From: a virus | Taxonomy: Duplodnaviria; Caudoviricetes | Virus record (IMG/VR): IMGVR_UViG_3300021164_001199 | Span: 1 to 64,000 of that record | DNA length: 64,000 nucleotides | Direction: 5' to 3' (one strand) | Part shown: in pieces, positions 860 through 51,863 of the stretch | Numbering within the stretch: the first letter of the stretch is position 1 | How the letters are laid out: every line of letters begins with the position of its first letter | Position numbers and translations under genes: made by a program | Notes under the pieces: generated by a model | Databases searched by the model: none | What the model was told of the DNA's origin: nothing | The model's input: only the letters and a program-made list of their open reading frames with translations

Positions 860-1283
860 CTAAAATATGTACAAAATGCAAAGTAGATAAACCATTATCT
901 GCTGAGTATTTTCCTTTACATAATAAAACTAAATCTGGTTTTGATAGTTGGTGCAAATCTTGTAGAGCTACTTATAGAAGTGAAACAAGAAGAGGACATT
1001 ATAGAAATATGATATCTGATAAAGCTTTAAAAACTATATTAGAAGAAGTTACTGAATGTACAATATGTGGAGCAAAAGAAAATTTGGTTGTAGACCATGA
1101 TCATAAAACTAATAAAATTAGAGGTCTTTTATGCAACCATTGCAATAGAGGTCTTGGTCATTTTAGAGATGATCCAGAACTTTTAGAATTTGCTAAAATT
1201 TATTTACTTGCACAATCTGAAATAAAAGCAGATATTACTAAGTATAATGATTATATAAATCACTTAAAAAGTGGAAATGTTAA
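839..1283 (+). mobile_element. Free-standing homing endonuclease insertion bounded by two copies of the host gene's 3' end
   Basis: 839-859 TTAAAAAAATGGAAGTGCTAA and 1263-1283 CTTAAAAAGTGGAAATGTTAA both encode LKKWKC*. Confidence 0.7.
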
Positions 1284-1575: not shown

Positions 1576-1576
1576 T

Positions 1577-1765
1577 ATGATGAAAAAGAATTGTAAAGGT
1601 GGTGTTAAAGTTGGTTTGAATGGTAATGTTGCTGTTCAAACCAAACCAGGTTCTAAAGGTGTAGGGCCCACTAAAACTGAGAAAGCTACAGTTCAAAAAA
1701 CTCCAGGATCAAAAGGAGTTGGTAAATCTAAAACAGCTAAGGCCGTAGTAAGCCCTAAAAAATAA
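1577..1765 (+). CDS. Small basic protein (62 aa) with an internal repeat
   Basis: ATG lies 1 nt after the upstream TAA, so it is preferred over the ORF track start at 1547. Contains the repeat VQTKPGSKGVG / VQKTPGSKGVG. Confidence 0.65.
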   Translation: MMKKNCKGGVKVGLNGNVAVQTKPGSKGVGPTKTEKATVQKTPGSKGVGKSKTAKAVVSPKK

Positions 1766-11997: not shown

Positions 11998-12863
11998 TGA
12001 GCAGCCTATATAATTATACTCTTAAGTATAGAACATTTAATCAATTGTTAAATGAGATGTATGTTGAGTTTCAAAGTCCTTCAATGGATAAAACTATTGA
12101 ACCTCAACACCTTATCAAAGTTGCAATGAGAGTTAATTATGATCTTGGTCTAAGAGTTCAGAGAACAAGAGAAACTGTACTAGACATTAGTAACAGTAAA
12201 GCTAAATTACCTCTTAACTTTAGTAGTTTAAACTTTGCATTATTATGTGGAAGTTATACTGTAACTACTCCTGTAATCCAGGGAACTCAATCAGAAGATA
12301 TTATTGTTAATCAAGGTAACTGTGGAAATGAAACTGATTGTAATGCACCATATACTTGTTTAAATGATTGTGGTGGTTATGTACAATTAATACAACGTTT
12401 CAAAACAGAGACAAGAACTTATAATCAAAATTATCCATTAAGACTAAGTGAGTCAAGGGAAGTTTCATGTTCATGTCCTAATGTAAAAAATCATGCAAGT
12501 AATTCAGGATACATCCGTGATGGTTTTCTATTTGTAGATTTTGAAGTTGGTAATGTTTATATTAACTACCAATCTACAATGGAAGATGATGATGGTAATT
12601 TACTTGTTGCTGATCATCCACTTTTAAATGAATATTATGAATATGCCTTAAAGCAAAGGCTTGTTGAAAATAGAGTTTTATTGGGTGATAAAGAATCTGT
12701 TGGTGTTCTTCAATTATTAGAACAAAGATTAAGAGCATCAAGAAATAACGCATTGTCTTTTGTTAATACTCCAAACTTTGCTGAACTAAAAAAGATTTGG
12801 GAAATTAATAGAGCATCAATGTATGACAAATACTATGACATGTTTAAATCATATAGACGATGA
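11997..12863 (+). CDS. Tail ring/tubular protein
   Basis: 288 aa with AKLPLNF and GNVYINY...DDDGNLLVADHP...EY motifs. Coupled by TAATG and located immediately upstream of the muzzle gene. Confidence 0.6.
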   Translation: MSSLYNYTLKYRTFNQLLNEMYVEFQSPSMDKTIEPQHLIKVAMRVNYDLGLRVQRTRETVLDISNSKAKLPLNFSSLNFALLCGSYTVTTPVIQGTQSEDIIVNQGNCGNETDCNAPYTCLNDCGGYVQLIQRFKTETRTYNQNYPLRLSESREVSCSCPNVKNHASNSGYIRDGFLFVDFEVGNVYINYQSTMEDDDGNLLVADHPLLNEYYEYALKQRLVENRVLLGDKESVGVLQLLEQRLRASRNNALSFVNTPNFAELKKIWEINRASMYDKYYDMFKSYRR

Positions 12864-13222
12864 GTTTTATCAAAAGTTTCAAATTAGATTTATATGCCTG
12901 CAAGATATCTGTTATTGTAGCTGATGATATATTTGAAGAAGAGAAAAAACTATATAATAAATATGGTGAAGACTATGATGATTATATGAGTGCTGATGGT
13001 CTATGTTTATATTTTATTCATGACCATTATTATATACTATTAAAAAAAGATGCGATTACTCACAATCTTATAGCACACGAATTATATCATACTGTTTGTG
13101 CTATCATGGATCATAGAATAATAGATGATGAAGAAGCAAGAGCTTGGTTGATTGGATATGTTACATCACTTATTTATCAAGCATTTGATAAAGCAAAAAT
13201 TGAAATAAAAAATGGCCACTAG
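12860..13222 (+). CDS. Small zincin-like metallopeptidase
   Basis: IAHELYH (HExxH) plus a downstream DEEARAWL glutamate. Confidence 0.6.
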   Translation: MSFIKSFKLDLYACKISVIVADDIFEEEKKLYNKYGEDYDDYMSADGLCLYFIHDHYYILLKKDAITHNLIAHELYHTVCAIMDHRIIDDEEARAWLIGYVTSLIYQAFDKAKIEIKNGH

Positions 13223-16200
13223 ACAAGATAATTCTGAAAACTCTCAACAAAGTAATTCATCTGATGCATCATTGAATACCTTTAATAAAGGTATGATGAT
13301 GGACATAGATGATATTGTTGTTCCACAAGGTGTATGGTTAAAAGCTAGAAATGCTATTAATAACTCTGATAAAGGACACTTAGGTGTTTTAGGTAATGAA
13401 CCATCTAATACATTTTGTGATGCTATAGCTAATCAATTTATTGTTATTGGTTTAATTTATATTACAGATGGTGTATGGTCTGTTTTTTCAACAAATAATA
13501 TTAATTCTGAAATAGGTATATACAAAGAAGATGAATGTTCATATAGACGTTTATTCCGTGATTTAAATAATTGTTTAAATTTTAAAACTACACATTTAAT
13601 TAAAGGAGTATCTAAAGAACAATTTGATTGTTCAAGACAACTCTATTGGGCAGATGGTTTTAATCCAGATAGAACAATTGGAATAAAACAAGACTTAAGC
13701 GGACTTGTAGATGAATATTATTTTAATAATAAAACAGAGCAAACTACTGGAGATGCTGATGAAATTTGTGAAATAGATGATTATGATACAACTAGATTAA
13801 ACTGTGATAAAACTAGACTAGCTCAATTAGTAAAGCCTCCTTGTATTGATCTGAGAAGAAGTAATTTTTCTGGAAGTATAGGAAATGGATCATATCAAGT
13901 ATTTATTGCATATACTGTAAATGAACAAAGAGTAACTGATTATATTGGTATAAGTAATGTTCAACCATTATATACACATGAAAATATAAATAGTTCATTA
14001 GAAATAGTTGTATCAGAAATAGATGAGAGATTTGATGAATATGAATTAGTAATTGTTAGTTTCTTTAATCAACAAACAGTTGCAAAAAAACTAGGAATTT
14101 ATAGTACAGGTTCAGGTACCATAACTGTAGATTACATAAACACAGAATTACCATCAGTACCTATTTCTCAAATTCCAATAATATCAACTGTCTATGAAAG
14201 ATCAGAGGCAATGTATAGAAATGGTGATTACTTATTAAGAGTTGCACCTACAGGATATTTAGATTTTAACTATCAACCTAGAGCTAATCAAATTACTGCT
14301 AAATGGTTTGCTTCTACACAACCTGAAAACTATTATACTAATGGTGGTAATAAAACTACATACTTAAGAGATGAAGTATATTCATTTTTTATTAGATGGG
14401 TTTATGATACAGGTTACAAATCTCCTTCTTTTCATATACCAGGTAGAGATAAAAATTCTACAGATTCATTAACACAAGGAATAGATCATGCTGCATCTAC
14501 TGCAGATCCAATAGAAAATACATTACAACTTTGGCAAATAAAAAATACAGCAACTAAAACTGCTCCTTTTGGACCCATTGATTATAATACACCTTTAGAT
14601 ATTAATTATCCAAATGTAGTTGCTGAAGGTCAAATGGGTTATTGGGAATCTACAGAAATGTATCCTAATGATAAACCAGAAGTATGGAATGTAGGTGATC
14701 CAAATCATCCAGAATGGGATTTATGTGGACAAAGAATTAGACATCATAAGTTTCCAGATACAGATTTAATACCACACTTCATTGGTGATGATACAGATTT
14801 ATTTATTAAAACACATGTTAATCATAATAACTTTTGTGCTACATCATTACTCTCAGGTCCCAATCAATTAGCTTTTTCTAAAGGTAGAAACTATAGAATT
14901 GTTTTACTAGGAGTAAACTTTGATAATATATTACCACCTGTAGATGAAGATGGTAACTTAATTCCTGGAATTATAGGATATGAAATACTTAGAGGAACAA
15001 GAGAAAATAATAGAACTATTATTGCTAAGGGTGTTATTACTAATTTAAGAGAATATGATTATCCTGAATTTACTAATACACAAACTGAAAAAAAAGGATT
15101 AATATTAAATTATCCATTTAATGACTTAAGAGATGATGAATTATTATCTAGAATAAAAGTAGATGGTGGTTGTAATAATCCTTGTAATTTTGTTGACTAT
15201 CCTTTACTTAATATTTTTAATAGAAGGTATGTAGCATTTCATTCACCAGATACAAACTTTGGTAATCCATTTTTAGATGTAGATGAAATTAAATATACAG
15301 GAGAATTACAAGGTGTTGCTGAAGGATATTTTACTGAAGTAAATAAACATCCCAAACATGCTTTACCAAATGATGGGGCTTTAATTATAGCTATGATATT
15401 TGGTTTTATTACTGCATTAAATTATACAGTATTTAGTGGTACTGCTAGTGGTACTGCTGATTTTTATACAGAAATAGGTGGAAATGCAACAGCTATGGGT
15501 AATAAACCACCTATTGATGATTTACCTGTATTTGTAGATGCTATTGTTAGTGCTATAATGAAACCTATTGCATTAGTATATTATACAATTCAAATAGCTC
15601 AAGGTTATCTTGATGCAATGATGGCATTAATGTCAACAAGACAATATGCATTACAACATAAGGCTCATTGTTTCTATTCTAATTTTGTAAGAATGAGACC
15701 AGTAAGGCAAAATGTTTTAAGATCAGGATATATAAAAGATTCAAGACAAAGTTTAGATGATATATATACAATAAATAATGTATATAGAACTAATTTTGTA
15801 TTTCTAAATACAAATAGAGACTGTGTATTTCCAACTTTAAGAGATACTAGTAGATACTCTGTTCATAAAGTATTAGGTTATAATGATATTAGAATTTTAG
15901 ATCCAACTAATAAAAGAGTATCAGTTACATCATCATGTATGTATGCTTCTTTAAAAGTTAAAATAAGAAACTTATATGGACAATTAAATTCTATTAGACA
16001 ACTACTTATTTCTCCATGTGTATTTAATGTGCCATCAAATCAAGATGCAAATACTATTGTACCAGGAACTAAGTATGATGTGTATGGTGGTGATAATTAT
16101 ATAGGAAGATATACTGAAAAAAATACTTTCTTCTTTTTCTATGATTGGTTAATGGATCAACCAGATGGTATTGAGTTTGATTATAGAAAATACACAATGA

Positions 16201-18113
16201 TTCCATATCCTAGATATTGGATTAATACAGAAAGATACAATACTGGTCAAATATTAGATAATTTAATACCAGGACTTTTGTGTAATGATACTGATGGTGA
16301 AAGTGCATTAGAAACCATACAAGATAATACTTATCAAGATGCCTTTCCAAGTGATAATGCATCATTAGTAAGAAATAAATGTACTAGTATAACAATAAGT
16401 AATTTATTTTGTGGTGGTTCTAATGAAGATGTTTTATTAAGAATTGATGGTTGGTTCTATTTATTTTATAGTGGAGTTAAAGACTTCTTTGTAGAATCTG
16501 AAATAAATTTAGCTTTAAGAGATTATGATGAGGTTCCTGAAAAAAGATTCTATGATGAATTTACTTATACCAATCTTGACTTAATGTTTGATACTAGCAT
16601 TGTTAAAAAAGCAAACTATTATAAATATGATAAATCATTAAGTATTGCAAAATATGCTAACGTATTTCCATCTTGGAGTACATTACATCCTAGAAGTTAT
16701 AATCCAGTAGTAGCAGCAGATTGCTATCAGAGTTTTCCTAAAAGAGTAATTTATTCATTACCAAGTTCTAAAGAAAGAAAAAAAGATTATTGGAGAAACT
16801 TCTTAGCATTTAACTATAGAGACTTTACCTCAACAGTAACTTCGATTTCTCCTATTAGTATGAATGGAGCAATGATCCATTTTAAAGATATAAGTCCTGT
16901 TCAATTTATTGGAGTTGATACTTTACAAACAGATGTAGGTACAAAGATTACTATTGGTGATGGTGGATTATTTAATCAAGCATTACAAAATATAGTTAAT
17001 ACAGATGCACCTTATGAATATGGTTCATGTCAAGATAGAATGTCTATTATCAATACACCATTTGGTCTATTCTGGATTAGTCAAGATCAAGGTAAAATAT
17101 TCCAGTATGGTGGTCAGATAAAAGAGATTTCTGCAAAAGGTATGAGATGGTGGTTTGCTAGATATTTAAAATATGAATTAATAACAGCATTTCCAGATTT
17201 TAATATTTTACAAAATCCTGTAGCAGGTATTGGATGTCAAGCAATTTATGATAATAAGAATCAAATAATTTATTTCTCTAAGAGAGATTACAGACCTTTA
17301 GATCCAAATTTAGTTTATAGTCCAGAAGCTAATAAATTTACAATAACTTCACTTGGATTAAGAGATATAAAATTAACTGATAAGAGATATTTTGAAGATG
17401 CTTCATGGACTATATCATATGATCCTAAAACTGAAGCATGGATTTCTTTTCATGACTGGCATCCTAACTTTATGATACCAGAAAGAAATACTTTCACTAC
17501 AGTTATAGGAGGTAGTTTCTGGAAACATAATAATACTTGTTCAAGCTTTTGTAATTTTTATAATGTAGATTATCCATTTGAAATTGAAACTATTGTTAAT
17601 AGTGGTCAAACAGTAACTACTACAAGAAGTGTTGAGTATATGATGGAAGCATATAGATATGCTGAAAATTGTTTTGATGCACATCATCTATTAGATTACA
17701 ACTTTGATGAAATGATAGTTTATAATACTGAACAAATTTCTGGTATATTAAAGTTAAATTTGAATTCTAAAAATGAACCTTTTATAAATCTAACTTATCC
17801 TATTGTTAATCCTCAAGGTTATATAGATGTGTTATATAGTAAAGAAGAAAACAAATATAGAGTTAATCAGTTCTTTGATATTACTTTAGATAGAGGAGAG
17901 TATTCAGGTAATACTAATATAGTATGGAATACTCAAGCTAATGGTTATGTTAAAAATATAAATCAAGCTTCTGTTAATTATAACAAGGATCCATTTCAAC
18001 ATAAAAAATTTAGACACTATTCTAATAAAGTATTATTTAGAAAGAACGTGAATAACAATATCAAAATGTTCTTTAAAATATTTAATGTTAAACAGCAGAT
18101 CTCAATGCGATGA
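13212..18113 (+). CDS. Tail stabilisation / muzzle protein (crAss-like, P22 gp10-related)
   Basis: 1633 aa. N-terminal NTFNKGMMMD...ARNA, LYWADGFNPDR, RDEVYSFFIRW, IRHHKFPD, and C-terminal WTISYD...WISFHDWHP motifs. Synteny agrees. Confidence 0.75.
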   Translation: MATRQDNSENSQQSNSSDASLNTFNKGMMMDIDDIVVPQGVWLKARNAINNSDKGHLGVLGNEPSNTFCDAIANQFIVIGLIYITDGVWSVFSTNNINSEIGIYKEDECSYRRLFRDLNNCLNFKTTHLIKGVSKEQFDCSRQLYWADGFNPDRTIGIKQDLSGLVDEYYFNNKTEQTTGDADEICEIDDYDTTRLNCDKTRLAQLVKPPCIDLRRSNFSGSIGNGSYQVFIAYTVNEQRVTDYIGISNVQPLYTHENINSSLEIVVSEIDERFDEYELVIVSFFNQQTVAKKLGIYSTGSGTITVDYINTELPSVPISQIPIISTVYERSEAMYRNGDYLLRVAPTGYLDFNYQPRANQITAKWFASTQPENYYTNGGNKTTYLRDEVYSFFIRWVYDTGYKSPSFHIPGRDKNSTDSLTQGIDHAASTADPIENTLQLWQIKNTATKTAPFGPIDYNTPLDINYPNVVAEGQMGYWESTEMYPNDKPEVWNVGDPNHPEWDLCGQRIRHHKFPDTDLIPHFIGDDTDLFIKTHVNHNNFCATSLLSGPNQLAFSKGRNYRIVLLGVNFDNILPPVDEDGNLIPGIIGYEILRGTRENNRTIIAKGVITNLREYDYPEFTNTQTEKKGLILNYPFNDLRDDELLSRIKVDGGCNNPCNFVDYPLLNIFNRRYVAFHSPDTNFGNPFLDVDEIKYTGELQGVAEGYFTEVNKHPKHALPNDGALIIAMIFGFITALNYTVFSGTASGTADFYTEIGGNATAMGNKPPIDDLPVFVDAIVSAIMKPIALVYYTIQIAQGYLDAMMALMSTRQYALQHKAHCFYSNFVRMRPVRQNVLRSGYIKDSRQSLDDIYTINNVYRTNFVFLNTNRDCVFPTLRDTSRYSVHKVLGYNDIRILDPTNKRVSVTSSCMYASLKVKIRNLYGQLNSIRQLLISPCVFNVPSNQDANTIVPGTKYDVYGGDNYIGRYTEKNTFFFFYDWLMDQPDGIEFDYRKYTMIPYPRYWINTERYNTGQILDNLIPGLLCNDTDGESALETIQDNTYQDAFPSDNASLVRNKCTSITISNLFCGGSNEDVLLRIDGWFYLFYSGVKDFFVESEINLALRDYDEVPEKRFYDEFTYTNLDLMFDTSIVKKANYYKYDKSLSIAKYANVFPSWSTLHPRSYNPVVAADCYQSFPKRVIYSLPSSKERKKDYWRNFLAFNYRDFTSTVTSISPISMNGAMIHFKDISPVQFIGVDTLQTDVGTKITIGDGGLFNQALQNIVNTDAPYEYGSCQDRMSIINTPFGLFWISQDQGKIFQYGGQIKEISAKGMRWWFARYLKYELITAFPDFNILQNPVAGIGCQAIYDNKNQIIYFSKRDYRPLDPNLVYSPEANKFTITSLGLRDIKLTDKRYFEDASWTISYDPKTEAWISFHDWHPNFMIPERNTFTTVIGGSFWKHNNTCSSFCNFYNVDYPFEIETIVNSGQTVTTTRSVEYMMEAYRYAENCFDAHHLLDYNFDEMIVYNTEQISGILKLNLNSKNEPFINLTYPIVNPQGYIDVLYSKEENKYRVNQFFDITLDRGEYSGNTNIVWNTQANGYVKNINQASVNYNKDPFQHKKFRHYSNKVLFRKNVNNNIKMFFKIFNVKQQISMR

Positions 18114-21100
18114 AAAAAAGGCTTAAAAAATTCATAGTAGATCCAAAAGGACAATACAATCATCCAGGAAAAAATACTTATATACCAAATGCTAAAGGTA
18201 GTATAACAATGAAAGGAGTGCCTTATCCTGTATTAGGTATAGATGATCAAGGTAATCAACAAATGATGTATCCTAATGAAGACTATCAATTTCCAGGAAA
18301 TGGTGTATATGAAATACCAATGGCTCAAAATGGAGGAACCTTTAATCCAGATACAGATGAGTTTATTGAATTTAATGATGAGTTACCACAAAGTGATAGT
18401 AAGTATAATCAAAAAAGAGCTGATGAATTAGGTTATAAACCTGATGAAACTGGACATTTACCATCTGTAGATTATACAAATGGTATGTGGTTAAAATCTA
18501 AAGAGCATCCTACAGCTTGGATGGAGTATCTTTATGGGTATACTTTAAATCCAGAATTAAATAAAAATACAAATGTTGTAATAAATCCAGAAGGTTATTT
18601 TGGAAAGAATCAATTACAATACATAAATAAAAAATATGGTGGTGCATTCAACCCAGACACGGATGAATTCATAGGATTTGCAGATGAGTTACCTCAAGCA
18701 CAAGAAGGTTTAGAAAAAAAAGGATTTGATTCATTATCTGAATCTCAAAAAGCATTATTACAAAAAGGTAATAATCTAGATAAAGTAAAAGGATGGTATG
18801 AAAAATATCCTGATGAAATGCAAAATTATAAAGCATTTATAGATCAACATAATGCTGATGATTACTTAAAACTATATGATACTGAAAAAGAAAAGTTTGA
18901 TGAGTCAGTTAAAAATAATGCTGATTGGCATAAAGACTGGTATGCAAAAAGAGCACAGTTACCACAATTTAAAGATGTAGCTACACAAAGACTTAATAAT
19001 TATACTGATCAAGATCTTGAATCTACTACTTTAGTAGATCCCGTTAATTTTGCATTTAATTTATGGAAAGATCAAAAACAAGATATGAAATGGCGTTTAC
19101 AAAAAAATAGTGAAACTGGTAAATTTGAAGTTAAACCTGTAGATCGAGATTCACCACCTTCTAAATTTGAATTTCCTACTGATAAATTATTTGGTGAATA
19201 TGATCCTAGTACAAAAAAAGTATTGGTAAATTCTAAATTAGTCAATCAAGGATATTATGATGTAAATGGTAAACTTTATAATCAAACAGTTACACATGAA
19301 AATGATCATAAACAAGATTATGATTATCCACAAGAAGGAACAACAAAAAATATTTCACTAAATGATTGGAAAAATTATGATGATAATTATTCTAAATATT
19401 TATTAGATCAAGAAGGTACATATGAAAATCCTAGAAAAGATCCCTTACAAGATGTATTAGGTTATAATAATATTATATCAGATAATAGAACAGATAATGG
19501 TAAAGATTTATATCAATATCAACCAAAAGAAGTTAGAACACGTTTAGATGTTTGGAGACAATATAATAATATAGATGCTTTAAAACAATATTCTGAAGAT
19601 GAAATAAGAAGTATTATACAAAATAATAGTAAAGATCCTAATACTCCAAGGAATATAAAAGAGTTATATCAAACTATTGACAATCCTAGTAAGTTAAGGT
19701 ATCTACATAATAGTTATGTTAGTAATGATAAACAAAGTCCATTAGATAGATTTTTACCACAAAATTATATACAAAAAGCTCAGACAGGAATTGAATTAAT
19801 AGATTGGGATAATGCAAAAAAATATATGCCTTGGAAAACTAAAACTAAATTTTCCCCATCTAAAGTATTACTTAGAGAATTAGGTAATGTTAGTAGATAT
19901 AATAATTCAGAAGAAGGTATTATAAAAGAACCATATAAGAATTCACATGAAGTATACATGGATGATAAAAAAGGATGGAGAAAAGTTTCACCTGAAGATT
20001 ATGAAATGTATAAAAAACAATATCCTGGTTCTGATACACCTTCAGGATGGATAATGAATAATAAACAAACTGGAGGTAGTTTACAAAAATATCAAATTAA
20101 AGGACAAGATAATATTCAAACAACTCCTGCAGTTTCAACAGGAGTAAATCTTAATATACGTCAAATAGATCCTTCAGTTAAATTTGCTGCACCAAAAAAA
20201 TCTCCTTATGAACAACTATCATCATTAAGTCAGGAAGCATATAATCAATACAGTAATACATTATCTGATGTAGATAAGTGGCCTCAATTATCTGGTAAAA
20301 CAATTAACTTAACAACAGATAGATATAGAGGTGCAAATGTTCCAGTTGAATATATTGATATGTTGACTAGTTCTGCTAAAAAATTTAAAATAGATCCATA
20401 TCTATTATATGCAATAGCTGGTAGAGAATCTACTTTTGGACAAGGAACATTAGCTAATAAACAAAGAAACATATCACCAATAGAATTAGTTTCAGGTTGG
20501 AATATTGCTAGTCAATATGAACCATATGATTATACAAGATTTTTAGCAGATAATAGAACTCCAAGTGTTAAAACAAATAAAAACAAACATGGTTATTATT
20601 ACAGTATAGATTCAGATAATAGAGATAGTACTTTAAATCAAATTAGTAATTATATAACTGATAATGATTTAATAGATAAATATAAAAAGAAATTAGAGTC
20701 TACTCCTAAAATTAATTATACAAATCCATATGATTTTCTTGCAGAATTTATTATAAAAAATGGAGTTGATAAATATAATCCAGGTGATCCTGATTATAAA
20801 AATAAAATTAATAATGAAATTTCATTACTAAAAAAAGATTCTGCATTTTCTAAATATGTTAATAAAAAACAAAATGGTGGTAGTCTAGAACAATATCAAA
20901 AGAAAGGACAAGTTGTATCTTATCCATCTACAGCAATGACTTATAATGATAATAGATCATTCTTTGATAGTCATGCTGTATTAAATGATAACCCAAGATA
21001 TAATGAATGGTTGAAAAAAAATATATATGAAGGTAACATAGCATATGATCCTAATACTGGAATGTCATATCCTTTAAATAAAAAGATTTCAATTCCAGAA

Positions 21101-24100
21101 GGGAGAGCTGAAAGAGCAACTGAAGCCTATACTAAAAAAGGAGTTAATCAAAGATTAAATACAAATAAAGATGCTAGAAGAGATGTTGTTACTCAATCTA
21201 TGATTGATGTGGGATCTAATCCTTTATTCTATGCACCAGGTGCTATTGCTGCTACACCATTTATTGCACCAGCAGCAGCTACTGTAGGTGCAGCAATGAG
21301 TGCTCCAATGTCTATAGGTTCAGTAGCATTACCAATTACTGGATTAGACGCATTAGGATTAGGTTTTGGGATGAAAGGTGCAAGTCAATTAACTAATGAT
21401 TTGAGTTCTGGATATTATGGATCTGATGCACCAACTGCTGATAAAATTGCAAGAGGTATAGAAACAGGATTAGATATAGGATTTTCACCTGGAGTAATTC
21501 AAGGTCTTGGAACAGGAGTTAGAGGACTAGGTCAAGCTGGTAAATATATCATGAATAATGCTAATCTAGGTCAAAAATTAAGAAATCAAGTTGGATCAGT
21601 AATGTTATCACGTAGTTTAAATAATGGTAAAATTCCAATTGAAGCTATTCCTGAAATACAAAGAATAGATCCAATAAACCGTAGTTCAGTAAATGTTAAA
21701 AACGATTTTTTAAAAAACATGTCTGAAGAAGATTACAATAGTGTAATACAATCAATTTATAATAATAACAAAGTATCTTTTGATAATCCATTAATTCAAT
21801 TTAAATCAAGCAGACCTGTAAGTTCAACTTTACCATTAAATTTTAATACAAGAGAAGGATTCTTATTTAAAGAAAAATTTTGTTTACCTGGTAGTGAATG
21901 TGCAAAATCATCTAATGCAGTAGCAAATAAAATATATACAGATATTACTGGTAAAGAATTTAATGTTGGTGATAATGCTCATAATGCTTGGCATCTAGAA
22001 GATCAAATGACTAGATTCGGTGCAATACCTGTTGAAAGTATGGATGAATTTAAAGTAGGTGATAGATTATTAATGGGTAATGGAGTTGACCAATCTACAT
22101 ATGTTCCAGGATATACAGCTGATCCAAATATCAGACATGCTGGTACTTATGCTGGACTAATGGAACATGAAGGTAATTTTTACCAAACATTATTTGAAAG
22201 TGGTAAAGATAATCCAATGTATTTAAATAGTATTCATAATCCTTTTACTGGACCTAATACTTTACAAAAAGCATTCAGACCTAAACAATTTATTGGAAAT
22301 GAATTTGGAGAAAATTTAGTTGATAAAAATATCAGATATGCATTTCGAGATAAACCATCTGTAGCAGAATATAGTTCTCAAAATAAAAATGTTCAAGCTT
22401 TATTAACTGAAGCTGAATCATATAGAGAAAAAATTAAAAGAATGCATGATTTAACAAATGATGAATTTGATGAAATGTTAAATAGTCTAATTGGTATCGG
22501 TGCTCAAGAAACAAAACTTAATAGAGCATTGCCAGGTTCTAAATTAGCTAAAGCTAAAATTAAATTACAAAATATGTTAACTAGTGCTGGTTTAACAGCA
22601 CCAATAAAAAATACTATAAATACTGGTAAAAATATTGCAAATAAAGTATTATCTAAATCATCATCTTTACCTGAATATCCTGGAACAAGTGTTATTGAAA
22701 TGGAATCTGCTAAATTAGCAGAATCAGCAGGTATGTCATATGCTGATGCACTTAAAAGTGTAAAGAGTAAATATCAACCTAGAATGGCTTTTACACCATC
22801 TACAGTAGAACCTTCTAAAGGAATGTTTAGACAAAAATTTAAAACAGAAAATGCAAGAACCTCAAATTTTGAATCAACAATAAATGAGGATGAAGTAGGT
22901 CATGGATTAAGTCAAATGAGTGAAAATTATAATATAATAAAAAAATTATATCCTGATGCAACACCTAGACAACTAATAGATTTAACTACATTAATGTGGA
23001 ATAGTCCAGGAAAAGCTAAAAATAAAGAGTTAGTAGATTTCTTTTTATTTGGTAAAAATAATCCTAATCCTGATAAATTTAAATTTGATTATGTAACTAA
23101 AGTAAAAAATCAAAGAAATAAACTAATTGATATTAAACCAAAAGGTGTAGAAGATTATAATGAAGTTTTTAGGAATGGAAATTACCCAGAAATACAATAT
23201 CAAAAAGGTGGTTCCTTTAACCCCAATACTGATGAATTTATTGAATATAGTGATGACTTAGATACTTATCAAAAAGCTGGACAAGTTAAACCAACTTATT
23301 TATCACCTGAACAATTAGGTGCTAGACAAGTAATGCAAGCTAGTACTACAAATGTTGCACCTGTTGCTCCAAAACTTCAAGCATCTCAATATTATGCACA
23401 AGCTCAGAAAGATATTAGTAATATAAAATTATCTGATGATGACTTCAGAAAAAAATATGGTACTAATAAACATACTTGGCAAATGAAAACTGATCCACAG
23501 TATAAAGCACAAGTAGAAGCTGAAGCTATAGAATTAGCTAAAAGAAATGGAACTATAGATTTACCATCTTCAAATATGTTTAGTAAATCATATGCAGGGA
23601 ATCCTAATCTTAACTACATGATTCCTAATGGATTAACTGGTGATGCTAGAAGAAGTTATGAAGAATCTCAAATGAATGTAGTTGGTGCAGCATTACCAAT
23701 ACCAGGATTACAACAAATGGGTAGAATACCATCTATAGGACAAGCTTTAGGTACAGAAACTGGTTTATTATCTAATGTTTATAAAATAAATCCTTGGGCA
23801 GAAAGATTAAATGATGCAAATAAATCATATAGAGTTGCTGGATTAGATGCTTTTGAAGATTTTAAAAATACAGGAATATTAAGAAGTCAAAGAATTTTAC
23901 CTGAAAATGCAACTTTTTTAGATAGAGTAGCAGCAAGGTCTACAGGATTTCCATCATTTCAAAAAGGATATGCTGATATGGCATATGCTCCAAAAGAAGG
24001 TGCGGTTATATTTGAAACAGGACTTCCTACATTTAAAAGAGGAGAGATTAATCCTATAACAGGACGTCCTATTAAAGGAGGTCATTATGCTCATAGAGTT

Positions 24101-25096
24101 ATTAATCCTGAAACAGGTGTAACTATGTCACAAATACCTGGTAAAGATATTAGAGTATTTAATGATAAACCTAATTGGTTAATGGGATATGAGCAATTAG
24201 AAATTCCTAATTTAAATGTAAACTCAAATATGGGATTTGCTAACATAAGACCAAATCCAGAACAATTAAAAGATGCGTATGGATTTTTACGAAGAAGACA
24301 ATTTATTAAAGAATTACAAAAACAAGGTTTAATAGGTAAAAATTTTGAAGATTTAAATTATGCAGCAAGAAGTACAGATAAAACAAATGCATTAACTAAA
24401 CTAGCTTTAGAAAAAGAAGCTACACGTTTTAGAGGAGTTGAAGGTTCCGTACCTAAAAGTGGTAAAGGTACACAAGAATATACTGGATACAATTTTGATA
24501 TGTCAAAACCTGCATGGGGTAATGAAATATCTGAATTTGAAAATATGATAAATGCAGGGGTAGATTTTAATGATCCTATATCAATTGCTAAATATCAAGC
24601 AGTACACATACCAATGGAACAATATGGTTATAGATCTGGTATGCCAACCATGAAATATGTAGATGCTTTATATACTGGAAGTTATCCAACTGGATATGGA
24701 AAGTATATGTTTAAATTAAAGTCTCCAAGAGATTTTAGTACAGGTAATTATCAAGATTGGTTTAATAAATACCATAATTTAAAAAGTAGAGATTTTAATA
24801 AATTGGCTGTTAAAGATGGATATTATAATACTTCATTTATTCCTGAGAATTCTTATGATTTACCAGTACTTTTAGATAGAAATTCAGTAGTAGGAAAAAA
24901 AGGACAAAAGATGTTTGATATTGATGAAAGTTATCCTTTTATGAATTATAAAAACTTAAATAAAGATCAACAAATAGAATACAACAAATATTTAAAAAAA
25001 TTAAAGGATGATTGGAATACAGGTTGGAAAGGTCAATACCAAAAAGGTGGTACCTTTGATCCAAATATAGATGAATTCTTAAGTTTCGTAGACTGA
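18110..25096 (+). CDS. Modular virion cargo polyprotein (2328 aa) with zincin-, lysozyme/SLT-, NlpC/P60- and ART-like modules
   Basis: HENDH (19295-19309) plus PKEVRTRL; AIAGRESTFG...YNPG; CLPGSECAK...RHAGTY; IGAQETKL...SKGMFRQK...WN; SYRVAG and RFRGV...ALYTG...YG. Modules are separated by GG linkers. Confidence 0.6.
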   Translation: MKKRLKKFIVDPKGQYNHPGKNTYIPNAKGSITMKGVPYPVLGIDDQGNQQMMYPNEDYQFPGNGVYEIPMAQNGGTFNPDTDEFIEFNDELPQSDSKYNQKRADELGYKPDETGHLPSVDYTNGMWLKSKEHPTAWMEYLYGYTLNPELNKNTNVVINPEGYFGKNQLQYINKKYGGAFNPDTDEFIGFADELPQAQEGLEKKGFDSLSESQKALLQKGNNLDKVKGWYEKYPDEMQNYKAFIDQHNADDYLKLYDTEKEKFDESVKNNADWHKDWYAKRAQLPQFKDVATQRLNNYTDQDLESTTLVDPVNFAFNLWKDQKQDMKWRLQKNSETGKFEVKPVDRDSPPSKFEFPTDKLFGEYDPSTKKVLVNSKLVNQGYYDVNGKLYNQTVTHENDHKQDYDYPQEGTTKNISLNDWKNYDDNYSKYLLDQEGTYENPRKDPLQDVLGYNNIISDNRTDNGKDLYQYQPKEVRTRLDVWRQYNNIDALKQYSEDEIRSIIQNNSKDPNTPRNIKELYQTIDNPSKLRYLHNSYVSNDKQSPLDRFLPQNYIQKAQTGIELIDWDNAKKYMPWKTKTKFSPSKVLLRELGNVSRYNNSEEGIIKEPYKNSHEVYMDDKKGWRKVSPEDYEMYKKQYPGSDTPSGWIMNNKQTGGSLQKYQIKGQDNIQTTPAVSTGVNLNIRQIDPSVKFAAPKKSPYEQLSSLSQEAYNQYSNTLSDVDKWPQLSGKTINLTTDRYRGANVPVEYIDMLTSSAKKFKIDPYLLYAIAGRESTFGQGTLANKQRNISPIELVSGWNIASQYEPYDYTRFLADNRTPSVKTNKNKHGYYYSIDSDNRDSTLNQISNYITDNDLIDKYKKKLESTPKINYTNPYDFLAEFIIKNGVDKYNPGDPDYKNKINNEISLLKKDSAFSKYVNKKQNGGSLEQYQKKGQVVSYPSTAMTYNDNRSFFDSHAVLNDNPRYNEWLKKNIYEGNIAYDPNTGMSYPLNKKISIPEGRAERATEAYTKKGVNQRLNTNKDARRDVVTQSMIDVGSNPLFYAPGAIAATPFIAPAAATVGAAMSAPMSIGSVALPITGLDALGLGFGMKGASQLTNDLSSGYYGSDAPTADKIARGIETGLDIGFSPGVIQGLGTGVRGLGQAGKYIMNNANLGQKLRNQVGSVMLSRSLNNGKIPIEAIPEIQRIDPINRSSVNVKNDFLKNMSEEDYNSVIQSIYNNNKVSFDNPLIQFKSSRPVSSTLPLNFNTREGFLFKEKFCLPGSECAKSSNAVANKIYTDITGKEFNVGDNAHNAWHLEDQMTRFGAIPVESMDEFKVGDRLLMGNGVDQSTYVPGYTADPNIRHAGTYAGLMEHEGNFYQTLFESGKDNPMYLNSIHNPFTGPNTLQKAFRPKQFIGNEFGENLVDKNIRYAFRDKPSVAEYSSQNKNVQALLTEAESYREKIKRMHDLTNDEFDEMLNSLIGIGAQETKLNRALPGSKLAKAKIKLQNMLTSAGLTAPIKNTINTGKNIANKVLSKSSSLPEYPGTSVIEMESAKLAESAGMSYADALKSVKSKYQPRMAFTPSTVEPSKGMFRQKFKTENARTSNFESTINEDEVGHGLSQMSENYNIIKKLYPDATPRQLIDLTTLMWNSPGKAKNKELVDFFLFGKNNPNPDKFKFDYVTKVKNQRNKLIDIKPKGVEDYNEVFRNGNYPEIQYQKGGSFNPNTDEFIEYSDDLDTYQKAGQVKPTYLSPEQLGARQVMQASTTNVAPVAPKLQASQYYAQAQKDISNIKLSDDDFRKKYGTNKHTWQMKTDPQYKAQVEAEAIELAKRNGTIDLPSSNMFSKSYAGNPNLNYMIPNGLTGDARRSYEESQMNVVGAALPIPGLQQMGRIPSIGQALGTETGLLSNVYKINPWAERLNDANKSYRVAGLDAFEDFKNTGILRSQRILPENATFLDRVAARSTGFPSFQKGYADMAYAPKEGAVIFETGLPTFKRGEINPITGRPIKGGHYAHRVINPETGVTMSQIPGKDIRVFNDKPNWLMGYEQLEIPNLNVNSNMGFANIRPNPEQLKDAYGFLRRRQFIKELQKQGLIGKNFEDLNYAARSTDKTNALTKLALEKEATRFRGVEGSVPKSGKGTQEYTGYNFDMSKPAWGNEISEFENMINAGVDFNDPISIAKYQAVHIPMEQYGYRSGMPTMKYVDALYTGSYPTGYGKYMFKLKSPRDFSTGNYQDWFNKYHNLKSRDFNKLAVKDGYYNTSFIPENSYDLPVLLDRNSVVGKKGQKMFDIDESYPFMNYKNLNKDQQIEYNKYLKKLKDDWNTGWKGQYQKGGTFDPNIDEFLSFVD
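18320..25096 (+). repeat. Dispersed linker repeats inside the 2328-aa ORF
   Basis: GGxF(N/D)Pxx DEF copies at about 18320-18391, 18629-18709, 23198-23284 and 25037-25096. KQxGGSLxxYQxKGQ copies at about 20063-20107 and 20864-20911. A KAQTG half-copy at about 19775-19789. Confidence 0.9.
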
Positions 25097-25139: not shown

Positions 25140-28100
25140 ATGAGAAAAGCACTAGTAAGACGTGGAGGTCAAGTCATTGAAGTAGATGTAGATGACAACT
25201 ACGTAAACCAATTACGTAAAGCAAAAAAAGGTTTACAAGTTTCTAAATCTGCTAGTGATCCATGTCCACCTGATTATTATTGGGATGAAGATGAAGGAAA
25301 ATGTGTTCCTATGTCTGCTACACTTCCTAAAAGAGAAGAGTTGTTTACTAATCCAGAAATGATAAAAGATTTACAAAGATTAAATGATAAGAGAAGGATT
25401 ATTGACTATAAACAATATTATAGAAAAACAAGAGATGATTTTTGGAATGAAAATTTTAAGGGACCATATATAATAGATGATAAGGGTAGACAAGTACCAG
25501 ATCAAAATTCTCCTGAGTTTATTAATTATAAAAAATTAGTAGAGGAACGTTTTAAAGATATGCCTGATCCTTATAAAAAATCATTTAAACTACCAGATGA
25601 TTTTAAAAAGAAAGATTTTTATCCTAAAGATGGTGAGTGGGATGAAGATTCTAAAAAGGAATTTAATCAGTTTTTTAATCCTGAACCTACTGAACAAGAA
25701 AAAGAAGAAGGAATTTTAAAAGAATACTTAAAAAGTAAACCTCAAGTAAATCCAGATTTTTATTATAAGGATATTCCAGCTAATGATCCCGTACAACAAT
25801 ATAAAATGAATCAGGATCAATTACGTGATTATAGATATGAAGAGGAATGGTGTCCATGTTATAAAATGAAGGAAGAACTAATTGCAGGAAGAATGGTAAC
25901 AAAAAAAGTTTGTGTACCATGTGAGCAGGCAAAGATGGGTGGAAGTCTTGCTAAATTTATGCAGGTTGGTGGAGAAGGATCTAGTTATCCTCTAAATAAT
26001 AGAGGTGAAGAAATTAGATACCGTAAAGAATTTGATAGAAATGGTAAACGTATAATTAAAGAAACATCAGGCTATCCTGCTGATTTAGAAGAAGGTGATC
26101 CAAGAACTACAAAGCGTACTAAAATAGTATTGAATGATGATGGTAGTGGGAGATTTGTAACTAGAAAATCTGGATTTTTTAATTATTTTGATCCAATAAG
26201 AGGTTATTATCAAGGTCCACCAAGATATTCAGAAACTTTACCTAGTGGTTCTGAATTTAATTCACAACCTACTTATCAAATGGGTGGTACTCCTCAAGGA
26301 CAAATGGCACAGATGCCTCCACAACAAGGTCAAGGTTTTGAACAAGATCAAGTAATGCAATTGATTCAAGCCTATGCTCAAGCTATGGGTATATCTGCAG
26401 AAGAGATTATTCAACAACTTCAGCAAATGGATCCTCAAGCTCAACAACAAGCTATTCAACAAATGGCTCAAGAGTTACAAGGAGGACAACCACAACAACA
26501 AGCACCTCAACAAGAAATGCCACCTGAACAAATGATGCAAAGAGGTGGTAATTCAAAAGGTGCTGATACACTTGAGATGAGTACACCTGAATATAAGAAT
26601 GATTATTTTGCTAAGTTAACTCAAAAATTTGGTCAAAATAATTATGACAAAGCTTTCATGAAAGATATGAATAGTGAATTTCAAAAATTTCAAGCAGGTG
26701 GTTATATTCAAAATGCTGATGGAACACAATCATATGATTTAGGTAGTGGATTTGATCCTAACAAATTATCTAAAGCAAATATGTTTCAAGATTATGCTAA
26801 CCAAAAAAAAGAAGATGGAAATACTTTTGGTGCATTTACAAATTTATTATATACAGGAGCAGAAAAAGTTGGTAAGGCTGCAAATACAGCAGCTCAAGTT
26901 GCAATGACTGCAGCAGGTGTTCCTCCAGGAGTAACTAACTCTTTAACTAAACCTAAAGGAAAAGATGGTTCAGGTGGATTTGATCCTTCTCAATTAATAT
27001 CAATGTTTGCTAAATATGGTGGTAACTTACCTAAGTATCAAACAGATGGACAATTTACTTCTGGTATAGGAACTTTTGGTAATTCTCCTGCATGGAATTT
27101 TGGTAATAGTGGATTAGATAATTTTATGAATGAATTTGAAATAAAAAATCCTAATTACGGAAATCAAGTTCAACCAGCTCCAGTATCTAATATTAAAATG
27201 GCTGATCAATCAAAAAATAAACCTAGTGGTTTAGATTTTGGTCCACAAGATGATCCTATAACAACTAATGCAACTAATCCAAATAAAGATAAAGAATTAA
27301 TTGCGGGTCCTGATTCTGTTAAAAAACCAAATTTTAGTTTATCAGAAATGGGAGCTGGTAAAGGAATGGGACCAGCTGTAGCTGGTTTATTTGAAGCAAT
27401 GGGTAATAAGGGTAAAGCTAAACAAGCAGAAGCATTTGCACAAAATGCATTTATTTCTGATAACTTATTTACATCAAATACAGGAGATAGAATAGATAGG
27501 GGAGATTATGTAATGAACACTCAACCTAATAATGCTAATTTTAGACCAGATCAAAATATACCAATGGGGCCATTTGCTAGTGAGTTTGGTAAGTATGGTA
27601 TGCAAGTAGCTAAAGTAGGAGTACAAGTACAGAATCCTTATATGTCTAATCCATACTCACATCCAGAAGCTATTCTTTATGGTGAACCAGATCCTAAAGT
27701 ATCTAATACTTTAAAACCAGTTAAAAGAGAAAATGCTAATCTAGAAGCAGAAGTTGGTGAAGTAGCTGTTACTCCAAGTGGACCAGATGGTGTACCTAAA
27801 TTCTTTAAGATAGGTGGTAAGAATCACTATGATGGTGGTACTCCATTAAATCTTCCTGAGAATACTTTTATATTCTCTAAGACTAGATCTATGATTATCA
27901 AAGATCCAAAGATTCTTAAAGAATTAACAGGATCAACTAAACCAGCAACACCTGCAGATTTAGCTAAGAAATTTGACTATTCAGAATATGTAGCAACAAT
28001 TCAAAATAAAAATTCTGATCCAGTAGAAAGAAAAACTGCTGAATTCATGATTGAGAATATGATGTATAAACTTGGTCAAATTGCTATTATACAAGAAGCT

Positions 28101-29588
28101 AAAAAAGGATTCCCTAATGGTATACCTTTGGTGGCTGTACCATACTTAGAAAAAGCAGGTATTGCTCCAGAAAGTATACTACCTCAAATACAACAAGAAC
28201 AACCTCCAATGGATCCAGGAATGCAACAACAAATGATGCAACAACCTCAAGAGCAAATGGATCCTAGAATGATGCAAGAACAAATGCAACCAATGCCAGA
28301 AGAAATGATGATGCCTCCTATGGCTAGATATGGTGGTACTAATTTAGAAAGATATCAGACTAAAGGTCAAGTACTTACTCCTGAGCAGGTTGCAGCTGCA
28401 GATCAAGCTTTAGGAAGAATTGAACATTATAAAATAAGAGGTCAAGGTAATGCAGATGCAATGGCAGGATATAAAGCACAAATTGATAGTCTTTATAGAA
28501 ATCCAATGTATGATATTAAAGCAAAAGTAGATTCATTAGATAATATATATCCTACAGTAGTAAGTAAATTTACAGATGTACCTTGGAATCAAGTTTTTGA
28601 TCCTAATAAAACTTATAATAAAAATTTAATTTATAGAAAAGAAAATATTAGTGATGCTAGTATTGATTATTTAAAAAAGAATAGTCCAGAAGAATTAGAA
28701 AAATTTGAAAATAGACCTAATCCATATTTTAAAAGCTATAATTATAAAAAAGTAGGTGGTACTAATATAATGGGTGGTCCTGTGATACCAGCTTATCAAA
28801 CAGGTAATCAAGTTAAAGGAAATTTTGCTCAAAAAGTTTTATCAGGTAAAAATCCAATCACAAATCAAGAAGCTATTCCAACTAAAAAAAATAATTCATA
28901 CATGCCAGAAGCATGGACACTTTATGCAAAAGCAATAAGATCTAGAAATTTAGATGAAATAAATGCTGCAGCTGACTATTTTGAAAAAATAGATGTACCA
29001 AATAGTTTAGGTACAAGTTTCCTTAAACCCTTTATTTTACAAACTGAACAAGATGTTTTTGATAATGCAGCAGCAGCTCTAAGAGATAGATCAAAAATGT
29101 TAATAAAAGATAGTGAACAAGCAACTATGTCTGCTAGACAATTTGAAGAAAATAAAAAATTATCTGATTTTAGAAATAAGTTAATTGAACTAAAAAAATC
29201 AATTCCTTATAATTTAGAAAATATTAGTAAAATAGAAAAAATAAATGAGGCTATAAAAGAAACAGCTAAATTTAGTCCTTCAAAAAATTCAAATAATTGG
29301 TTTTTATTACCTCAGTTTGACATATTTGATAATAATTATGATAGTCCTAATTCTTTAATAAATAAATATAGTAATTTATTTACAGAAGATCCTTCTTCTA
29401 AAACATCTAAAGAACCAGCTAAATCTAAAACAACTATGGCTGCAGATAGTGCATCTAAATCTACTCCAACTGCTGTACAAGCTCCTGTTAAAAAAGAAAA
29501 ATCAAAATCTACTACTAATGCTTCAAGTAACAAACAACCAAGAATTAAAAAAGTAGAAAGTCTTGATGGATATGAAATTTTAGATTAA
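25140..29588 (+). CDS. Virion cargo (ejection) protein with Gln/Met/Pro low-complexity tracts
   Basis: Core motif ANLEAEVGE...IGGKNHYDGGTPLNLPENTFIFS resembles the crAss-like cargo protein that follows the muzzle gene. Contains many xQxGG/AxYGG motifs. Confidence 0.55.
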   Translation: MRKALVRRGGQVIEVDVDDNYVNQLRKAKKGLQVSKSASDPCPPDYYWDEDEGKCVPMSATLPKREELFTNPEMIKDLQRLNDKRRIIDYKQYYRKTRDDFWNENFKGPYIIDDKGRQVPDQNSPEFINYKKLVEERFKDMPDPYKKSFKLPDDFKKKDFYPKDGEWDEDSKKEFNQFFNPEPTEQEKEEGILKEYLKSKPQVNPDFYYKDIPANDPVQQYKMNQDQLRDYRYEEEWCPCYKMKEELIAGRMVTKKVCVPCEQAKMGGSLAKFMQVGGEGSSYPLNNRGEEIRYRKEFDRNGKRIIKETSGYPADLEEGDPRTTKRTKIVLNDDGSGRFVTRKSGFFNYFDPIRGYYQGPPRYSETLPSGSEFNSQPTYQMGGTPQGQMAQMPPQQGQGFEQDQVMQLIQAYAQAMGISAEEIIQQLQQMDPQAQQQAIQQMAQELQGGQPQQQAPQQEMPPEQMMQRGGNSKGADTLEMSTPEYKNDYFAKLTQKFGQNNYDKAFMKDMNSEFQKFQAGGYIQNADGTQSYDLGSGFDPNKLSKANMFQDYANQKKEDGNTFGAFTNLLYTGAEKVGKAANTAAQVAMTAAGVPPGVTNSLTKPKGKDGSGGFDPSQLISMFAKYGGNLPKYQTDGQFTSGIGTFGNSPAWNFGNSGLDNFMNEFEIKNPNYGNQVQPAPVSNIKMADQSKNKPSGLDFGPQDDPITTNATNPNKDKELIAGPDSVKKPNFSLSEMGAGKGMGPAVAGLFEAMGNKGKAKQAEAFAQNAFISDNLFTSNTGDRIDRGDYVMNTQPNNANFRPDQNIPMGPFASEFGKYGMQVAKVGVQVQNPYMSNPYSHPEAILYGEPDPKVSNTLKPVKRENANLEAEVGEVAVTPSGPDGVPKFFKIGGKNHYDGGTPLNLPENTFIFSKTRSMIIKDPKILKELTGSTKPATPADLAKKFDYSEYVATIQNKNSDPVERKTAEFMIENMMYKLGQIAIIQEAKKGFPNGIPLVAVPYLEKAGIAPESILPQIQQEQPPMDPGMQQQMMQQPQEQMDPRMMQEQMQPMPEEMMMPPMARYGGTNLERYQTKGQVLTPEQVAAADQALGRIEHYKIRGQGNADAMAGYKAQIDSLYRNPMYDIKAKVDSLDNIYPTVVSKFTDVPWNQVFDPNKTYNKNLIYRKENISDASIDYLKKNSPEELEKFENRPNPYFKSYNYKKVGGTNIMGGPVIPAYQTGNQVKGNFAQKVLSGKNPITNQEAIPTKKNNSYMPEAWTLYAKAIRSRNLDEINAAADYFEKIDVPNSLGTSFLKPFILQTEQDVFDNAAAALRDRSKMLIKDSEQATMSARQFEENKKLSDFRNKLIELKKSIPYNLENISKIEKINEAIKETAKFSPSKNSNNWFLLPQFDIFDNNYDSPNSLINKYSNLFTEDPSSKTSKEPAKSKTTMAADSASKSTPTAVQAPVKKEKSKSTTNASSNKQPRIKKVESLDGYEILD

Positions 29589-51861: not shown

Positions 51862-51863
51862 TT

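Follow-up and report, generated by a model that had tools for sequence, protein, structure and literature searches.

The 64-kb stretch analyzed here (the window) belongs to a 94-kb IMG/VR virus record, IMGVR_UViG_3300021164_001199, whose completeness is put at 79% by CheckV. The phage is uncultured and is known from this IMG/VR record alone. From position 18110 to 25096 on the plus strand lies an open reading frame (ORF) that is open for 2328 amino acids (aa), and its product is very likely a modular cargo protein whose parts are jointed by short conserved peptides, here called tags. The gene begins directly after the gene for a crAss-like muzzle protein, whose stop codon overlaps its start, and genes with Pfam matches to Ring_2 and Ring_1 lie upstream of the muzzle gene. 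On the contig of a relative (L004) the order is ring 2, ring 1, muzzle, a protein with the same N-terminal domain (M1) and a further cargo gene with Peptidase_M23, while in crAss001 the gene after the muzzle gene encodes gp45 (cargo protein C1). Because this gene order recurs in L004 and crAss001, the gene is placed at the C1 position, and gene order leads us to infer strongly that the cargo, or ejection, genes of this crAss-like phage start with it. The product probably travels inside the phage particle and is injected into a host that is expected to belong to the Bacteroidota.

All six frames of the window were searched with the regular expression GG.[FL][NDE]P[ND][TI]DEF. The long tag, GG-x-F-N-P-x-T-D-E-F-[IL]-x-F-x-D, is present at exactly four places, all in frame in the 2328-aa protein (aa 75, 177, 1700 and 2313), and the copy at aa 2313, TFDPNIDEFLSFVD, runs up to the stop codon. 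A short tag, GG-S-L-x-x-Y-Q-x-K-G-Q, occurs twice (aa 655 and 923). The repeated GG linkers noted in a preliminary description of this DNA are therefore real, as is its observation that the ORF terminates on one of them, with four long and two short tags in frame. The description had counted a seventh linker, KAQTG; this one (LPQNYIQKAQTG, aa 549-560) repeats only the second half of the tag, in degenerate form, and lacks GG. When the copies are set side by side, a core [Y/K]-[Q/K]-x-G-G is followed by L-(P/D)-x-Y-Q-x-x-G-(Q/E), with an acidic-aromatic 14-mer (x-F-N-P-x-T-D-E-F-I-x-F-x-D) as an optional insert between these two parts; tag A3 has all three elements.

The long copies (type A) are identical at 9-13 of 16 residues, only 4-6 of which use the same codon, and their nucleotide identity is 62-79%. 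That they share the peptide but not the codons indicates that selection acts on the peptide. The same differences make ordinary homologous recombination between copies unlikely, so that the term ‘recombination joint’, proposed earlier, is valid for outcomes but fails as a mechanism at the DNA level, and they rule out recent DNA repeats or gene-conversion tracts as the origin of the tags. Outside the tags GG is found once in the protein, against 10.1 occurrences expected from shuffles (P = 0.0006), a depletion absent from the phage’s other large proteins. In module M6 of relatives the depletion is weaker (15 versus 32 expected), and some relatives carry GG inside a conserved CHAP-like part, as P0017 does with TRHGG. 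Ahead of GG, Y at -3 and K/Q at -2 are conserved across the family. Judged by tag A1, the one tag modelled, the tag is predicted to be disordered: in the AlphaFold2 (AF2) model its predicted local distance difference test score (pLDDT) is mostly below 50 (aa 75-77, 82-91 and 93-97) beside a confident M1.

Some resemblances of the tag to known peptides were rejected. Asn-Pro autocleavage of the NPTH type at the tag’s N-P is contradicted by relatives that have N-S there (GGMYNSDTDEF in P0004), and 2A-like ribosome skipping by this same N-S and by the lack of a following G-P. A likeness of Y-Q-K-G-G-(Q) to the C-terminus of the actinobacterial tag protein Pup is treated as chance; we know of no Pup system in Bacteroidota.

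A large protein collection contains 52 relatives of 1280-4074 aa, each of which spans 3-34% of the query. BLAST segments correspond to single modules, often reordered among relatives, and 31% of the segment ends on the 2328-aa protein (n = 197) lie no more than 5 aa from a tag GG, where 2.9% would be expected. The modules are mutually unrelated, as first described, and in relatives they behave as separate units. The clearest case of exchange separates the protein (P0001 in our set) from P0002. The two are collinear through M1, M2 and tag A2, then carry unrelated stretches of 714 aa (aa 205-918) and 332 aa (aa 209-540), respectively, until similarity returns within tag B2, at YQKKGQV, so that a tag stands at either edge of the swapped cassette. 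The modules keep no fixed order, and in relatives M1 can come after M6. By our own scan the payloads of relatives include ART-PolyVal, SET, YkuD, LysM, GH24 lysozyme and SLT domains; Amidase_2 and M23 were taken from precomputed matches only. An expandable payload array, as first proposed, is thus what the comparison of module content among relatives reveals: they retain M1 and the tags, while their modules vary in number, type and order, and content is not invariant, with the 52 relatives sharing subsets only.

The ends of the chains follow the same pattern. In 40 of 53 relatives the terminus lies no more than 20 aa from a GG, where the mean spacing of GG is one per 165 aa. An ending of the tag A4 type is found on 14 relatives whose preceding modules differ, and the terminal 14-mer is nearly identical among them. 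The C-terminal tags fall into the classes FNPxTDEFLxFVD, GGWLDKY, ELTxEEIxxYxxxGYxVEEI and VKIKSLPKNWKTK. Internal class A tags are present in 11 of the 12 proteins with a class A terminus, and internal class C tags in 12 of 17 with a class C terminus; among proteins ending in class A or C, internal tags of classes A, C, D and E are never of the foreign class, while class B occurs in both groups. These counts are not independent because the proteins are related; nonetheless, the tags flank unrelated modules. The match between internal tags and terminal class fits a lineage-specific reader.

Table 1. Modules and tags of the 2328-aa protein, with its two neighbouring genes, in window positions
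Feature	Residues (aa)	Position	Strand	Evidence or remark
Muzzle protein gene (upstream)		13212..18113	+	Pfam crAss_MUZ PF25731, E-value (E) 4.5e-35
M1, conserved N-terminal beta domain	1-70	18110..18319	+	phmmer, AF2
Tag A1, MAQNGG-TFNPDTDEFIEFND-ELPQ...	71-97	18320..18400	+	Motif; strongest cluster of homology breakpoints
M2, small module	98-172	18401..18625	+	Moves on its own in P0047, P0050, P0051, P0052
Tag A2	173-200	18626..18709	+	Motif; left edge of the P0002 cassette swap
M3, HExxH zincin-like module	201-548	18710..19753	+	HENDH at aa 396-400, nucleotides 19295-19309
Degenerate joint LPQNYIQKAQTG	549-560	19754..19789	+	Homology breakpoints at aa 550-577
M4, small module	561-650	19790..20059	+	Alone at other positions in P0003, P0006, P0007, P0025, P0029, P0036
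Tag B1, NKQTGG-SLQKYQIKGQ	651-666	20060..20107	+	Motif, breakpoints
M5, lysozyme-superfamily-like module	667-918	20108..20863	+	Sub-threshold Pfam Glucosaminidase PF01832
Tag B2, KKQNGG-SLEQYQKKGQ	919-934	20864..20911	+	Motif; right edge of the P0002 cassette swap
M6, hydrophobic segment, Cys/His peptidase-like part and SLT-like part	935-1693	20912..23188	+	Commonest shared module
Tag A3, EIQYQKGG-SFNPNTDEFIEYSD-DLDTYQKAGQ	1694-1725	23189..23284	+	Motif, breakpoints; full two-part form
M7, at least three sub-modules	1726-2306	23285..25027	+	Breakpoints near aa 1875 and 2030-2045
Tag A4, C-terminus, KGQYQKGG-TFDPNIDEFLSFVD and stop codon	2307-2328	25028..25096	+	Motif
Second tag-bearing cargo-like protein, 1482 aa (downstream)		25140..29588	+	GG-NLPKYQTDGQ, GG-TNLERYQTKGQ, other [YFM]-x-GG sites

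As a whole, the gene gave no match by megablast and tblastn against 50,697 phage records, the protein has no family in PHROGs, and a PDB sequence search with the single 2328-aa protein returned only noise. Its N-terminal domain is widespread. With phmmer, M1 was found in 3266 clusters (50% identity) at E≤1e-3 and in 1318 at E≤1e-10, in proteins whose length ranges from fewer than 100 to more than 3000 aa. The domain occupies the N-terminus in 151 of 180 cases; internal copies almost always stand directly after GG or GG-P, starting 0-1 residues past the GG. The consensus is IVDPxGQWxHPG…ITMxGVPYPVLG…YxFPGxxVxEIP (18110-18319 in the window, and proteins P0054-P0196), and the AF2 model is a small beta domain of six short strands with pLDDT about 90. 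Foldseek found no fold match to this model in PDB at E≤0.001 and there is no Pfam model of M1, which makes it a candidate for a new family definition. An M1 profile found nothing in crAss001 gp45, gp46 and neighbouring ORFs, and as far as the Foldseek null shows, the predicted domain does not resemble the portal-bound domain of gp45.

The preliminary description also took the modules to be enzyme-like, and this holds to differing degrees along the chain. In M3 none of the H, E and H of HENDH varies among nine sequences, whose identity goes down to 33%. The AF2 model of this module (mean pLDDT 68) puts HExxH on a helix at segment residues 198-211 (aa 392-405), after strands. Both ends of the model are of low confidence, and the low-pLDDT C-terminal part, segment residues 345-378, corresponds to aa 539-572. 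Foldseek found no match to it at E≤0.001, and in a VIA search the top four rows were M13 zincins, followed by thermolysin, deuterolysin and others, at Z 3.5-3.9, below the tool’s noise guide. The MPTase-PolyVal model matches neither M3 nor any other part of the 94-kb record. M2 has no Pfam match. M5 resembles Pfam Glucosaminidase PF01832 below the family threshold (E 6.3e-6, 27.3 bits against a cut-off of 30.2 bits), with SLT_2 at E 0.054.

The most widely shared module is M6, which is 50-78% identical in 15 aligned relatives and has invariant C, H and E columns. A hydrophobic Gly/Ala-rich segment (aa 1039-1088, nucleotides 21224-21373) exceeds 1.2 on the Kyte-Doolittle scale in 19-residue windows; the module also has a Cys/His peptidase-like part of CHAP or NlpC/P60 type, which holds the protein’s only two cysteines, C1258 and C1264, and IRHAG at aa 1341, and an SLT-like part with GAQETK at aa 1464. 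Its nearest named clusters among language-model neighbours carry CHAP plus SLT/Lysozyme_like, at scores of 0.88-0.90 that serve as a lead only. There is no Pfam match to M6, and an M6 profile against PDB sequences gave noise, the profile being dominated by non-homologous flanks of relatives.

For the last block nothing found in this protein supports the ART-like label. The ART-PolyVal model has no match in the protein, and aa 1728-2315 give only noise in Pfam at E≤10. In P0025, ART-PolyVal occupies aa 1899-2049 of that protein (E 1.3e-13), after a part that aligns to aa 1717-2033 of ours, and an unrelated module takes its place here. Nor is the block a single module as described: the breakpoints divide it into sub-modules, at joints that carry no GG tag in this protein. 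One tag-less breakpoint, at 24167-24187 (aa 2020-2026), reads KPNWLMGYEQLE and recalls the NWLEFL or GGWLDNL endings of relatives; from its sequence, it may be a decayed tag. Taken together, these modules suit a protein that is first out of the tail, breaches the cell wall and contributes to a passage.

The downstream cargo-like protein of 1482 aa has nine core motifs, the maximum in the record (0.61 per 100 aa). The short tag is common to it and the 2328-aa protein and is absent from the muzzle and polymerase-block proteins. Along with its many [YFM]-x-GG sites the 1482-aa protein has long Q/P/M-rich low-complexity stretches; it starts with MRKALVRRGG-QVIEVDVDD and ends in DGYEILD, resembling the class D tag (…GYxVEEI) that terminates many relatives of the 2328-aa protein. 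In L004 the gene after the M1 protein (L004:13784-17389) encodes another tagged cargo protein with a wall-cutting payload, a Peptidase_M23 domain, and its terminus is RRGG-FVPYYKIGGWY. After the 1482-aa gene come two mid-sized ORFs and then three giant ORFs of 1788, 4187 and 2385 aa (the polymerase block). HExxH recurs there within 39298-59021 (+), as HEAWH at aa 624 of the 4187-aa protein and as HEYGH at aa 168 and HEFSH at aa 717 of the 2385-aa protein; the first 1000 aa of these two proteins match no Pfam peptidase model.

Elsewhere in the window, a 499-aa ORF at 29613-31112 (+) has a tag-like start (…YPELPKAQGG, aa 9-18) and no match in Pfam or PHROG. Between the genes for ring protein 1 and the muzzle protein, a 120-aa ORF (12860-13222, +) contains a conserved HELYH in a minimal-zincin-like layout. 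It has no Pfam match and three close homologues only in the large protein collection, too few for it to serve thousands of tagged phages, and the idea that it is the tags’ general protease was rejected. At 617-1765 (+) lie three small, very basic ORFs, two of which terminate in K-x-K-C; in one (847-1575) an HNH-like Cys/His half at the N-terminus is followed by a basic tail that contains K-K-x-GG sites.

Some features of the protein have counterparts in the structure of crAss001. There, residues 214-245 of gp45 lie on rings R1/R2 and residues 425-552 on the portal wing, and the muzzle binds an unassigned 14-residue peptide (PMC10172136). In gp45 (L003:16988-19516), AYGG at 207-210 ends four residues before the ring-bound piece, AFGG-WL at 425-430 opens the portal-bound piece, and FAYGG-DTNP with an acidic stretch follows that piece at 562. 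These [FY]-G-G sites go without comment in the structure paper, which mentions neither cleavage nor a protease (PMC10172136). Like the 2328-aa protein, gp45 is encoded directly after the muzzle gene and is large and partly disordered, with a hydrophobic Gly-rich segment; [FY]-G-G borders its two resolved pieces, and GG-x-x-N-P with an acidic stretch follows the portal-bound one. In contrast, gp45 has 842 aa, no recognisable enzyme modules and no M1 domain, and its Gly-rich segment is full of GG, whereas GG in our protein is almost confined to the joints. No homology was detected: BLASTP gave nothing significant, and PF25725 crAss_CARG1 is absent from the protein at E≤1 and from the 94-kb record at E≤10.

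The state of the crAss001 cargo in particles can be read in part from earlier gels. Sodium dodecyl sulphate (SDS) polyacrylamide gel electrophoresis in 2018 gave bands of about 150, 270 and over 300 kDa (PMC6235969). We re-analysed the published matrix-assisted laser desorption/ionization (MALDI) peak lists (PMC6235969, supplementary file 14) by peptide-mass matching. Band 3 contains gp47 and gp50, band 4 contains gp49 and gp44, and bands 6-9 include fibre proteins, assignments that indicate that the giant cargo proteins of crAss001 are intact. In the bands of these lists other than 11-13, neither gp45 nor the portal, which has an equal copy number, was detectable, so these data are silent on the size of gp45. 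The best match to the topmost bands 1 and 2 is the muzzle protein gp44 (157 kDa), with 11 peaks in band 2 against 5 for the reversed sequence; gp44 at this height may be an SDS-resistant oligomer.

Other systems share single aspects of this arrangement. Ejection proteins of the T7 gp16 type carry a lytic transglycosylase and membrane-active segments and are ejected ahead of the DNA. They are alike in being virion-internal with a wall-cutting domain and membrane-active segments, but their architecture is fixed, with neither exchangeable cassettes nor junction tags. T4 internal proteins with a capsid-targeting sequence and inner-body proteins of the phiKZ type are cut by a head protease at L/I-x-E or S/A/G-x-E. 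In these too, otherwise unrelated proteins share a short conserved peptide that earmarks them for loading and lies beside a defined processing site; their tags, however, are N-terminal and single, whereas those described here are internal and C-terminal, repeated and GG-based. In adenovirus and African swine fever virus, core polyproteins are divided at x-x-G-G by a dedicated clan CE cysteine protease. The sites are like those of our protein, but no C48- or C39-type protease was found here. The polyvalent proteins of phages and conjugative elements (Iyer, Burroughs, Anand, de Souza and Aravind 2017, PMC5512222) similarly combine unrelated effector and wall-degrading domains in one chain that is mosaic among relatives, as our protein does with at least seven modules. 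They include a zincin-like module proposed to process the chain, and P0025 carries their ART-PolyVal. Their hallmarks MPTase-PolyVal and ART-PolyVal have no match in our protein, the paper never uses the word ‘linker’ (PMC5512222), and the present family, unlike polyvalent proteins, is tied to one particular N-terminal domain and to a set position in the tail/cargo operon of crassviruses.

What the tags do can be weighed from these observations, which lean to a recognition handle over obligatory cutting after GG. We tentatively favour, at a little short of an even chance, a handle for recognition or docking that is hinged at Gly-Gly and stays uncut. The tags would be short linear handles read by a lineage-specific partner, most likely a surface inside the particle (the portal, ring or muzzle lumen) or another cargo protein. 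Binding would load each module and hold it extended and ejectable, and any module flanked by tags would fit the system, which would permit gain, loss and swap of modules at the tags; cutting there may add to such a role but would not be required. This reading is preferred because selection acts on the peptide, the tag is predicted to be unstructured, internal and terminal tags of a protein agree in class, the tag also works at the chain end, where the terminal 14-mer is kept after unrelated modules, and the gp45 pieces on the rings and portal of crAss001 give a precedent. Alternatively, [Y/K]-[Q/K]-x-G-G would be a protease site, cut after GG in the head or after ejection to free separate enzymes, by a zincin of the phage, either M3 or one of the polymerase-block HExxH modules, or by a head protease; the peptide after GG would then be a targeting or pro-peptide that is later removed, like the T4 capsid-targeting sequence. 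We regard such processing as unlikely, yet several findings speak for it and at the same time weigh against an uncut handle. The depletion of GG within the modules, seen more weakly in M6 of relatives, is predicted more naturally by a protease site, internal copies of M1 begin just past GG as they would after a cleavage site, and the protein carries its own, invariant HExxH module. The conserved Y and K/Q before GG and the further HExxH sites in the 4187-aa and 2385-aa cargo proteins also suit processing. Processing by zincins has already been proposed both for polyvalent proteins (PMC5512222) and for the fused polymerase-block polyproteins of crAss-like phages (bioRxiv 10.1101/2020.03.07.982082). 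The handle is further weakened in that the AF2 model shows no docking of tag A1 on M1 in cis, the 79%-complete record is without a portal or any head protease, and the crAss001 precedent is an analogy only, given that gp45 has no detectable sequence homology. Against cutting, the portal-bound piece of gp45 is continuous through F-G-G-W in the model, which argues against obligatory cleavage after GG at that site, and the giant cargo proteins of crAss001 migrate at full length. Cleavage at the C-terminal tag would free merely 14 residues, and yet this peptide is the best conserved part; GG is tolerated in the CHAP-like module of relatives; M3 is missing from all but 9 of 53 relatives; and Peptidase_C39, C48 and MPTase-PolyVal were not found in the record, other protease families not having been scanned.

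Two further accounts dispense with reading inside the particle. In one the tags would be passive hinges or evolutionary seams, flexible linkers that permit stepwise unfolding and threading through the tail with no specific reader, conserved mainly because modules spread between phages with their flanks. This is an in-frame version of the older ‘boundary sequence’ idea of modular phage evolution. It accommodates the clustering of breakpoints at tags, the clean swap between two tags, the predicted disorder of tag A1 and the free module order, with M1 after M6 in relatives, but it is decidedly improbable. Copies within the gene keep their residues while most synonymous sites differ, which places the peptide under selection, and the longest shared stretches of DNA are too short for ordinary homologous exchange. 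Moreover, a linker has no reason to occupy the C-terminus and stop at a fixed residue, and simple linkers rarely hold 16-30 near-invariant residues across thousands of proteins. The other account, which we consider very improbable, has the tags act after ejection, either as epitopes read in the host envelope or cytoplasm or as cation-binding loops that would fold on exit and ratchet the chain. The first form is comparable to colicin translocation epitopes, which are read by a periplasmic protein. For the second, the 12-mer N-P-D-T-D-E-F-I-E-F-N-D, aligned to an EF-hand loop, places Asp/Asn at positions 1, 3, 5 and 12 and Ile at position 8, and in the C-terminal copy the acidic 12-mer terminates exactly at loop position 12. 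Disordered tags repeated along a chain pulled through a narrow channel (PMC10172136) are also in keeping with action on exit. However, the classical EF-hand pattern fails at positions 1 (Asn), 6 (Glu, not Gly) and 13, and a Pfam scan of the protein revealed no EF-hand or dockerin. Tags at the same places in other lineages are basic (VKIKSLPK) or built on Trp (GGWLDKY), which excludes cation binding as a role common to all tags.

CrAss-like phages are among the most abundant gut viruses and are common in the sea. Polyvalent proteins and the cargo proteins of crassviruses are already known, and the papers searched contain no description of a conserved junction and C-terminal tag. The tag finding is real and is not unique to this window. 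The structure of crAss001 raised the question of how megadaltons of protein are loaded into the head and tail and then ejected, and a conserved junction peptide at exchangeable modules provides a concrete handle on cargo loading and ejection. The modularity conferred by tags also explains how the set of injected enzymes can change continually. It is rather unlikely, though not beyond consideration, that a single peptide both loads the modules that it flanks and marks a later cut site as a general cargo code of crAss-like phages. If true, such a tag would be a phage counterpart of the Gly-Gly-X processing of core polyproteins in adenovirus and African swine fever virus, and these abundant phages could plug new injected enzymes into a ready-made delivery system.

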